DNA of 64,000 bases, taken from Phoronis australis (taxonomy: Eukaryota > Animalia > Phoronida). Where the stretch lies: the NCBI GenBank assembly GCA_002633005.1, contig NMRA01000507.1:248001-312000 (forward strand), read 5' to 3'. Below, one piece after another: positions 33,301-48,862 of the stretch; the first letter of the stretch is position 1, and each line of letters begins with the position of its first letter. The notes beneath the pieces were generated by a model, which saw nothing but the letters and a program-made list of their open reading frames with translations, was not told the origin of the DNA and searched no databases. The position numbers were made by a program, and so were the translations under genes.

Positions 33301-36300
33301 TTTTTTAAATTCTGCTTTCAAACCTAAGTGTACACTAATGAGATATGCATACTCAGTGTCATAATAATCATTCGTCAATTCTACAGACCCTTACAAGTTT
33401 GCCAACTTAATAAAGCACGTCCCGTTGAGGAACATTGTCCAAAATGTGGACTTATTCTTTTTGAAGATTAATATTCACCTTTTCAGAGTTCTAAGACTCA
33501 CTAAGCCAGTAGACAACTTCTCTAAAATACAAAATTGCCAAATTTACAATATATTTCGAGTCCATTTTGACTTCGGATTCAAAGTCAGAAGTAACGGTTT
33601 TGTTTCAGTCAAAAATGCTTTATTACCACTTTTCGGACTTATACCGGTATTTCCAGGTACCTACATTTCTTCGAAGACAGAAGTAACGTTTTTTGTTTCA
33701 GTCAAAAAGTTTTTGTTGCCACTTTTCGGGCTCATATCGGTATTTGCAGGACGGTACCATTATTTTGCGCACCCACAGTTTCCCAGCCGATGTTCACAGT
33801 TCCAATATTCCCAGATAGCCGGCTGCTGTTGTATTCCGTGCACAATGTTTTCAGAACCCTATTATTCTGCCGTCTCAATGTTCCCTTGCTCAAAATTCTT
33901 GAGCTCTGATGTTCCCATTTTCCGATGTCTCCAATTTTGTTAGAAAATTATTGTCGTTACACGTTTTCTTAATCGTCAATTAAATGCCGCAGCAAAACGT
34001 TCCCCAATAAACGTGTATTCGGACCACATTTTTTACATTTATTACGACACGCAAAGTGCAATAAATTTTTGTTTTTACTGAGTGAGTTCTATATATTGTA
34101 ATGCTCAGAAAGACAGTTGTTTCCCACATTTAGACCCTTTGTGGGATTAGGAAGAACTTTCACTCCCACGGTTTAGTGCCGCTCTGGCGGCAAATCCTCC
34201 AAATACCTCATGGAACAGGAATTACAGCCTCGTCATCTAATAACGTATATTTTAATTTCAGTTATATCTGACGATGGTGTTGTCCACCGACTTCCAATAC
34301 ACAATATTCACCAGTGGCGGTGGTTGGCAGGAAATTCTGGAACCGATGACGGTCATATTACATTTATTGTAAGTTCACATCCCGTCAGCTGCGTTGATAT
34401 CTTAGATACACAAGCCAACCTTTCAAATGTACATCCATTGACCGTTTTACTGATAGCGAAATCGATGGGTGCGCATGCATTTCACCCGGAGAGTAGATTT
34501 GTTGGATACGACTCATCCAGTTCAGAATCCAGAAACCGTCACACAGACGACCGTTTGGTCGATAAGCTGGTAGTTGATTTTGGATCTACAAAATGGCTAG
34601 GGATCTATGCCACACCAATGATATACTGAGCTTCTAGTCCTGTCTCCTTGAAGCACTACTAAAGTGAAGTATTTTCTATAAGTCCTTTATGGCTACTAGC
34701 AGTGCTGGATGGGATGACTGTTCTCTCACAATCCTCGGGGTATTTGACGGCTAACAATAGCCTTAAAAATCATTGGGCTTGCAATTGGAAAAAAATCAAG
34801 TATAGACTCGTGGGCCTATACGAATGGAGACCTTATTGCAATCATCTGTGGTGTGTAGAATTTCACAAAATCAACCACTGTGAGACAAGTCAGACTTTCT
34901 GTGAAATTTAACGTCGGTACAAAGAGTCTTCATTACACATTGGTAAACTAGTCACATCTAAAAGAATTGGTAGACAAACGCCGTTTCAGTAAACGCGCAG
35001 ATCTCGAGCTGGATTGGTGTGATGAAAGTGTTGTAAAGACTGCATAATGAAACTGATAATTGTCGGGATATAACTCCAAACGTTCAAGAAGCACCGTTGG
35101 CAAGTAATCTTAGTTGTTTTTGGCAGGACTAATTTAGAACTATACACTACTCGTATCAACGTGAAGTTCCGGTAGGTAATTACAGCGTCTTGGATGTAGC
35201 GCGTCACAAATTTGGAGACTCGCTGCAATTTTGTGAAGATGCCTTGCTGAAGTAAAGGTTTTTGTCAAAATATTGCAAAAATTAACAGCATCTTTCGCTT
35301 TTTTGCCACTGTATCCTCTTTCATCTTTCGATGATATCTGAAACCTGTGAGTTTTATCAGTCTTCGTTCGAATGTCTATATTGTTTAATCAGGTCATTAT
35401 CGATCCACATCTGTCAAACATATGTAGATAGGAGTTCCGAACGTCTTGCGCCCAAAATCACTGTTGAAGGAATGATGCATTAAAGATACAGGTTGAAGTG
35501 GAAAGAAAATCAGAATAAAAATACTGTTTTGTCCAGTCAAAGCCACACTAACTAAGTTAGACCGGCACTGTCTCTGTGACACCCATATCAATCCAGTTGG
35601 TTTTTGCTGTTTTGCATCATCTACAATCTTGACATTCCTCTCTATCCTGTGAATGGCTCTGTTCGTAGTCATCATGTACATACACTGCAATGCAATGAAT
35701 GGGTCAACTTGTCTTACAGTTGTAAGAGGTTAATGTCTAAAGTCCAAAGTTTCTATAGTCCGAAGATTATAGTCCGAAGGCTCTGTAGTCCGAAGCTTCG
35801 ATAGTACGACAACACTCGATGTATCTATAATCGGATGGTTCTATTTTCGGTTCTATACAACCTTTGGACTTATAACCTTAGATCTACGTAATGATTTTCG
35901 TACTATCGAAACTTTGGCTAAAGGAGCCTTCAGATTATAGAGGCCCAACCTTTGTAATTTGGTGGTGTCAAAGGCATGCTGGACAGCAACCCTACAATCA
36001 TTGACCATTGGTGGTCATATGGACAACTGCTAATGGGTGGACCGTGCCCCTTCTGAGAATTGTCCTTGAGTGATACACGCGCTACATGATTGTGAGCTGT
36101 CAACTTCTGTTTGTATATTTCAGGACGTTAACTATGTAAAAAAGTCTTCGCTCAGTTACATACGCGTTTATTACCAAGGTGACATGAGACAACGCACAAA
36201 CGGAAATTTGCGTGTCAGAGCCTGTGCAAGATGGTTCTTCAAATTCAATGGTAACGAATGCTCCAAACCTGGTACAATAGCTGGAATTATTTCTGTCCGT

Positions 36301-48722: not shown

Positions 48723-48862
48723 TGGAAGGGCTTTGCAAGTTAGATGCTGGGACATACAACATACGTCTCTATGTTGAATCCTGCAGTGAGTACAACGACG
48801 CCGTCACGTGCTACGAGTCTCCCTGCCGTCTGGTGGCCGAGGAAGTGTTTTTAACAGAATAG
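48723..48862 (+). CDS. CTHRC1-like domain 3, terminal exon, copy B (intact duplicate)
   Basis: Acceptor retained; 4 nt differences from 36983-37122; same stop. Confidence 0.78.

Follow-up and report, generated by a model that had tools for sequence, protein, structure and literature searches.

Two Tandem Two-Exon Endings of a CTHRC1-Domain Gene in Phoronis australis: Candidate Alternative 3' Cassettes

A gene of the phoronid Phoronis australis carries two intact versions of its last two exons, arranged in tandem behind a single copy of the exon that precedes them. We lean, if only somewhat, toward reading these exon pairs (cassettes A and B) as an alternative 3' cassette of the PGRP-LC/pipe type, in which alternative splicing yields two versions of the last domain. 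A tandem duplication left this PAN-EGF-3xCTHRC1-domain gene with two endings of two exons each, both intact, and splicing from the common donor at 34368 would lead either to A (at 36124) or, skipping A and a transposon, to B (at 47857). The resulting proteins would be distinguished chiefly by a single hairpin loop in the last domain, a predicted TNF/C1q-like beta-sandwich; the variable loop would alter its binding partner.

Duplicated 3' cassettes are well known from insects, and a further case is in itself unsurprising. The worth of this one lies in its being a young case outside arthropods, in a collagen-less CTHRC1-domain family of no known function. Since the two endings are nearly alike outside a single predicted loop, expression of both would permit a direct test of whether that loop sets the binding specificity of the CTHRC1 C-terminal domain.

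The Gene and Its Predicted Protein

The stretch of DNA analyzed (hereafter the window) comprises 64,000 nucleotides, positions 248,001–312,000 of contig NMRA01000507.1 in assembly GCA_002633005.1, and all coordinates below are positions within it (Table 1). The gene model, a sequence prediction whose 18-nt exon (13273–13290) and signal peptide were read by eye, has 12 exons with AG/GT at all junctions and a single open frame, which is 610 aa long when it ends in A and 611 aa long when it ends in B. Exons 4278–31253 encode a hydrophobic N-terminus, a PAN-like domain (Pfam PAN_1, E = 0.0028, below cut-off), a cysteine-rich EGF-like exon and CTHRC1-C domains 1 and 2. Each of the three CTHRC1 C-terminal domains is split over three exons with identical phases, and PF25815 (CTHRC1_C) exceeds the Pfam cut-off in A2, B2, 11450–11647 and 31103–31252; four of the 17 queries (E1, the middle exon of domain 2, the EGF-like exon and a reverse transcriptase [RT] fragment) gave no Pfam match. 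As all three domains are alike in exon phase, domain-skipping splices would stay in frame. Beyond its donor at 31253, the last exon of domain 2 (region 31101–31264) runs within a few codons into a stop, and intron read-through could thus give a two-domain form. Upstream of and within the gene lie degenerate LINE-like and LTR-element-like coding fragments, recognized by eye from open reading frames (ORFs), at 239–3131 (+), 15000–17000 and 17352–18900 (-).

The three-domain CTHRC1-like protein is probably secreted, and, since no collagen (GXY) repeat occurs in the 610-aa model, the predicted product is not a bona fide Cthrc1. It resembles Cthrc1 (PF25815) in having the C-terminal domain above the Pfam cut-off, but differs in lacking the collagen repeat and in having a run of three such domains, preceded by PAN-like and EGF-like parts.

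Table 1. Features of the locus, as positions in the window
Feature	Position	Strand	Description
Coding exons 1–5	4278–4643, 5671–5770, 9297–9391, 11450–11648, 12756–12911	+	Gene model
Coding exons 6–9	13273–13290, 19528–19610, 23662–23857, 31101–31253	+	Gene model
E1	34262–34368	+	Domain 3, exon 1; phase 1 to phase 0; shared donor; single in window
A2	36124–36343	+	Domain 3, middle exon, proximal cassette; Pfam CTHRC1_C, E = 1.2e-11
A3	36983–37122	+	Last coding exon, ending in a stop; 3' region extends to ~38300
Dead VMO1 last-exon copy	42523–42647	-	Premature stop; near right end of unit A (42828)
Gypsy-type LTR element, degenerate	42828–47350	-	gag(SCAN)-protease-integrase-RT-RNaseH
B2	47857–48079	+	Duplicate middle exon, distal cassette; Pfam CTHRC1_C, E = 1.1e-10
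B3	48723–48862	+	Duplicate of A3, ending in a stop; 3' region extends to ~50130
Native VMO1 last exon	56962–57086	-	Open to own stop; convergent gene

Two Tandem Units, Each with an Intact Ending

Self-BLAST of the window reveals two tandem units, A (35601–42828) and B (47360–57315), composed of gapped blocks that are 84–86% identical. Each unit holds the last exon of VMO1, a convergent gene on the minus strand, along with the last two exons of the plus-strand gene; the near copy is B for VMO1 and A for the plus-strand gene. Aligned non-coding bases of A and B mismatch at 375 of 3277 positions (11.4%), with 36 indel events. The earlier note on this sequence had described E1 as without a duplicate, which stands for the window, where E1 and all upstream exons give self-matches only, but not for the genome, elsewhere in which an E1-like paralogous exon is present. 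Its description of both downstream exon pairs as intact in splice sites, frame and stop is borne out by comparison of exon ends and translations: A2, B2, A3 and B3 have AG/GT ends and identical phases, a TAG stop is common to both cassettes, and B2 is one codon longer than A2. Each cassette also has a poly(A) signal predicted from sequence (AATAAA at 38273 for A and 50105 for B). At this locus, then, one constant exon is followed by terminal cassettes that were duplicated in tandem.

This arrangement constrains how B could be used. In frame, the acceptor TAG of B2 is a stop codon, and the interval between A and B holds no further first exon; translation of B would need E1, because B is readable in frame only from a phase-0 donor and E1 is the nearest. 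As A ends in a stop, use of A and B is mutually exclusive by design. The choice would probably be set, as it is for the 3' cassette clusters of insects, by competition between ending at the poly(A) site of A and reading through ~10 kb. In a plain alignment scan with no G-U pairs, candidate docking/selector pairing did not rise above chance: shuffled sequences scored as high in 31 and in 36 of 200 cases.

Two further sequences were seen in unit B. A repeat shared in opposite orientation by a gene intron and unit B (26768–27508 and 52911–53667; 92% identical) includes a short stretch that looks tRNA-like by eye. Between the two genes lies an isolated minus-strand ORF (54346–54765) with a match to ubiquitin C-terminal hydrolase (Pfam UCH, E = 8.8e-14), which suggests a fragment or the cargo of a mobile element.

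A Truncated Retrotransposon Between the Cassettes

The units are parted by a Gypsy-type element with integrase before RT, a gene order (on the minus strand) like that of Gmr1 elements, whose integrase lies upstream of RT (PMC8220671). Pfam recognizes SCAN, Integrase_H2C2, rve and only positions 1–34 of 100 of RT_RNaseH_2; the protease, RT and LTR edge were read by eye. DNA depth over the element is 600–2900, loose ends of other copies fall at 42827, and the three RNA runs all contain reads of this family. Precisely where unit A ends, the element breaks off within RNaseH; its opposite end adjoins the start of unit B, and the corresponding site in unit A lacks an element. Because of this cut, and of the element's absence from that site in A, the present join between A and the element was probably made by deletion or illegitimate joining after insertion. 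The sequence upstream of B may formerly have been longer. The unit was probably larger before a deletion trimmed it and joined the end of A to the interior of the element.

Such a deletion or non-homologous join also lies at the heart of a rival explanation, which we consider unlikely: B would be the orphaned 3' remnant of a paralog, formerly larger or complete, that lost its front to a deletion later than the Gypsy insertion. In this view B would be transcribed only by read-through or from the element and make little or no protein, and its exons would be intact through earlier selection, conversion or luck. The cut inside RNaseH exactly at the end of A is as expected under this explanation, and the divergence and RNA data given below bear on it in both directions.

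Divergence, Selection and Gene Conversion

As a null model we took one copy (A) to be constrained and the other (B) to be free. Across both exons, 25 differences are seen against 24.1 expected, and pN/pS is 0.44 for the A/B exon pair against 0.47 for the dead VMO1 pair. The earlier note had compared the terminal exons (A3 and B3), which differ at four of 140 nt, with the VMO1 last exons, which differ at 22 of 125 nt and of which the copy has a stop (CAA to TAA). Both counts were reproduced. As proof of selection, however, the contrast was rejected on the figures above, and the VMO1 pair, taken there as an internal neutral control, is an unmatched yardstick that overstates the contrast, since it has diverged by 17.6% against 11.4% in non-coding sequence. 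The whole-exon pN/pS and the count of differences show no sign of selection on B, and the 11.4% non-coding divergence argues against A and B being alleles. Outside the variable loop described below, exon-2 pN/pS is 0.16 (loop removed post hoc). The whole-exon values are compatible with an orphaned B: a pN/pS of 0.44 fits one free copy, and survival of stop, frame and splice dinucleotides together in 7.4% of 20,000 neutral simulations is not negligible. The low chance of such survival also counts in favor of the cassette reading.

Exon 3 behaves differently, with four changes seen against 9.2 expected (P = 0.047). Because silent sites are low too (1 vs. 3.4), three of the four changes alter amino acids and the letter at 37011 is shared by A and B in the DNA contigs (X1, below), this looks more like conversion than purifying selection, and gene conversion probably keeps exon 3 alike. 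The note's count of four exon-3 differences was right, but not all are fixed: at 37011 the B letter accounts for 166.2 of 166.2 of the X1 depth, including all contigs there. Positions 37011 and 37444 were accordingly dropped as A/B markers, as the A contigs of X1 have the B letter. A2 is itself polymorphic at 36317, where an A-type X1 contig has another letter that changes an amino acid.

DNA Depth, Alleles and a Probable Unplaced Twin of B

It is very improbable that A and B represent two haplotypes which the assembly placed one after the other, and the DNA contigs (X1) largely refute this explanation. X1 represents one sample and is perhaps the assembly's own source, and so not independent of it. 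Neither copy is at half depth, whereas half coverage is what the earlier note had named as telling against its interpretation: contigs of the flank and A lie at 42–48 (A at ~44, like the flank), with 36–37 to the right of A3 and one contig at 27 (four differences in 395 bases), and B-type contigs lie at 79–85 (~80), about double, whereas one contig resembling a single allele has a depth of 21.8. Across the eight X1 contigs listed, 18 of 7336 bases differ from the window, an allelic divergence of ~0.25% that is some 45 times less than that of A and B. The VMO1 exon of A is, moreover, long dead, and an X1 contig (depth 37.3) spans the A/Gypsy join by 30–31 bases, at the limit of bridging; the Gypsy/B join is in no X1 contig among those listed. 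In favor of the haplotype explanation, a repeat is present at the A/B junction, and the window has an assembly artefact elsewhere, a local one at 25726–26944 in which 419 bases at 99.8% and 103 bases at 97% are repeated around a single N at 26247. From 26247 to 62811 there is no further N.

DNA depth over 47360–50342 is about twice that of the flank. Because B-type depth is ~80 against ~44 for A, B probably has an unplaced, near-identical twin (B') outside the window, and each haploid genome appears to hold two copies of B-type sequence; B-type contigs differ from the window's B at four of 563 bases. Alternatively, a depth of 80 may be the single-copy value, with A and its flank hemizygous in the X1 animal, which is also incompatible with A and B as alleles.

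A third type of sequence, at 80% likeness and a depth of 43–51, lies outside the window and is a complete paralogous gene with first exons of its own: its E1 differs at four of the last 30 letters and its preceding exon at two of 30, and it has a third version of the loop. A 3004-base X1 contig at depth 21.8 was also found to be ~88% like the E1 region. Summed X1 depth, which is not equivalent to copy number, is 79 over E1, 170 over exon 2 (79 B-type, 43 paralog and 48 A) and 166 over exon 3 (43 paralog and 123 for A and B collapsed). As these sums fit about two E1-type sequences against four exon-2 types, B-type exons seem to have no first exon of their own, and two first exons seem to serve four endings.

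Sense RNA of Both Cassette Types

RNA reads came from three stranded runs (X5, X6 and X7), by species label from animals other than that of the DNA run; 18–19% of each run was read, and joints were listed from at least three reads. The VMO1 gene, whose upstream exon lies in the ORF at 60816–61145 (Pfam VOMI, E = 8.7e-18), fixes the strand convention, with no reads on the other strand. At 42537–42540 the native VMO1 letters are present in 30/30 and 26/26 reads and those of the dead copy in 0/56, and the loose ends of the same 30 and 26 reads match 56932–56961; the copied VMO1 exon is silent.

Both CTHRC1 cassettes, on the contrary, are transcribed in sense, the B-type reads fitting either B or its twin B'. 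Sense RNA covers E1 in all three runs, partly from the third paralog, which supplies most of the RNA (11 of 13 X5 sense reads at 36242; 10 of 12 X6 reads at 36135). In X5, two of 13 sense reads at 36242/36243 are A-type, and none of the 13 at 36243 is B-type. In X6, all six sense reads have a non-A letter at 36243 and only one has the paralog letter at 36242, so that five of six are B-type; none of the six in exon 2 is A-type. Indels specific to the B loop occur in three X6 reads with three different starts. X7 does not cover exon 2, but its sense reads have the B letter in 3/3 cases at six of the eight 3' positions examined (37525–37553 on the A reference), against 0/3 at 37519 and 2/3 at 37528. 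Absence of expression from copy B, the other observation that the earlier note would have held against itself, is thus contradicted by B-type sense RNA in two runs.

These reads weigh against B as an orphan. The B-type sense reads of X6 are confined to exon 2 with none in the flanking introns (sense depth is nil at 36100 and at 36420–36923, giving exon-shaped cover), and over the 3' regions sense cover is comparable for B (920, 1327 and 2728 bases in X5, X6 and X7) and A (567, 2288 and 1287 bases). The neighboring VMO1 exon, which is truly orphaned, has a stop and no reads. Consistent with an orphaned B, on the other hand, are the antisense reads and the lack of a junction among those listed. 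Six B-type X5 reads are antisense over the B 3' region (48900–49100), perhaps from VMO1 read-through, showing that the region is transcribed on both strands. The joints 34368–47857 and 48079–48723 are absent among those listed at the three-read threshold in either of two mappings (15 of 106 joints in the first), and no window-type E1 joint, to A2 or to B2, reached that threshold; a canonical joint between exon 2 and exon 3 has three X5 reads, in which A and B are indistinguishable. The interpretation in the earlier note is supported in part: neither observation that might have overturned it was made, but its central splice is unlisted and its argument from sequence is weaker than stated.

Comparison of read counts gives a hint of the splice. 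Seven X6 reads have loose ends before 36124 that agree at 0.97, but only six of the eight X6 reads at 36129 are paralog-type; at 36142 the letter is non-A in 12/12 reads; and X6 depth in the bin 34335–35001 equals one read ending at 34368. Together these values hint at about one E1-to-B2 fragment in X6, and an A allele with that letter fits too.

The same reads are the place to weigh another explanation, which we find doubtful: the expressed B-type exons would stem from the twin B', or from an A copy that in the RNA animals has taken on B letters by conversion; the B of the window would then be a passenger. B' could lie, e.g., downstream of the first exon of the third paralog, and a twin accords with B-type contigs at about twice single-copy depth and with only four of 563 bases off the window's B. 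It is likewise the complete paralog, with its own E1 and upstream exon, that dominates the RNA. The letter shared by A and B at 37011 in X1 is what conversion would give, and a converted A allele would account for X6 reads on the A 3' region without any A-type read in exon 2. The X6 loose ends before exon 2, however, are non-uniform (the agreement of 0.97) and fit one read from the window's own E1, from which the paralog differs at four of 30 letters. Should B' lie in tandem with B, moreover, the cassette model would still stand, with three cassettes.

The Variable Loop and the Predicted Fold

Thirteen of the 21 nt differences between A2 and B2 fall inside a 36-nt loop, i.e., 13 of 36 nt in the loop against eight of 183 nt outside it (P = 6e-7). 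Such clustering would not be expected of neutral decay; diversifying selection or conversion from a paralog would fit. For the fold we used a single-domain relative from Lingula as a stand-in for the window's domain. It is predicted to form an all-beta sandwich (pLDDT 82.6) and matches TNF-like folds, including the bacterial TNF-like lectins PLTL and BC2L-C (TM 0.45–0.57), in agreement with the C1q-like fold proposed for Cthrc1 (PMC7058181). The PDB sequences searched hold no solved structure of a CTHRC1 C-terminal domain, and a search of them with P0053 gave no match at E 1. The A/B-variable segment aligns to the turn between predicted strands 61–73 and 77–85 of the Lingula relative, a turn that varies in length across the family. 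The main difference predicted between the two cassette versions thus lies in a single hairpin loop of a domain of TNF/C1q-like fold. Glycan binding by the domain is only a suggestion, drawn from the likeness of fold.

In a wider conceptual model, for which we hold out little expectation, two first-exon genes would share at least four interchangeable two-exon endings (A, B, B' and that of the paralog), among which conversion keeps the framework alike while one hairpin loop of a TNF/C1q-like, possibly glycan-binding domain diversifies. This would amount to a young variable-receptor system. The duplication would also have killed the copied exon of the convergent VMO1 gene, and the locus would then document, side by side, the birth of an alternative 3' cassette.

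Comparison with Known Systems and Relatives

In Drosophila, PGRP-LC, pipe (Pip) and CG42235 have constant 5' exons followed by tandem multi-exon terminal cassettes with their own stop and 3' end (PMC6191721; PMC9013439). PGRP-LC cassettes code for alternative recognition domains and Pip cassettes comprise two to four exons over >12 kb, and docking/selector RNA pairing occurs in only some 3' cassette clusters (PMC6191721). The Phoronis gene is like these in its constant 5' exons and tandem terminal cassettes, with a putative splice to B. It is unlike them in that only two cassettes are assembled, that these are young (11% apart) and replace about three-quarters of one domain, and that a truncated retrotransposon and a dead exon of a neighboring gene part them; unlike some members of this type, it showed no docking/selector pairing in our simple scan.

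Clade-specific expansion of the Cthrc1 family in several invertebrate groups has been described (PMC7058181), and that paper's sole mention of collagen-less sequences is a legend that refers the reader to supplementary table S3. We found no paper on this gene or its architecture within limited subscription coverage, and that table may list it. Protein searches with A2 among longer proteins gave six candidates, none significant, and with Lingula domain 3 gave matches in two of 286 candidates, both from Lingula; no annotated isoform of the gene was recovered as a result. The closest full-length relatives are uncharacterized Lingula proteins and one Logan protein, at 28–32% identity over 500–620 aa. 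Lingula anatina LOC106162620 and LOC106165752 and Logan P0002 share the architecture of the Phoronis protein, with ~600 aa, PAN and three CTHRC1_C stretches. LOC106162620 has two isoforms (X1 and X2) that differ in length.
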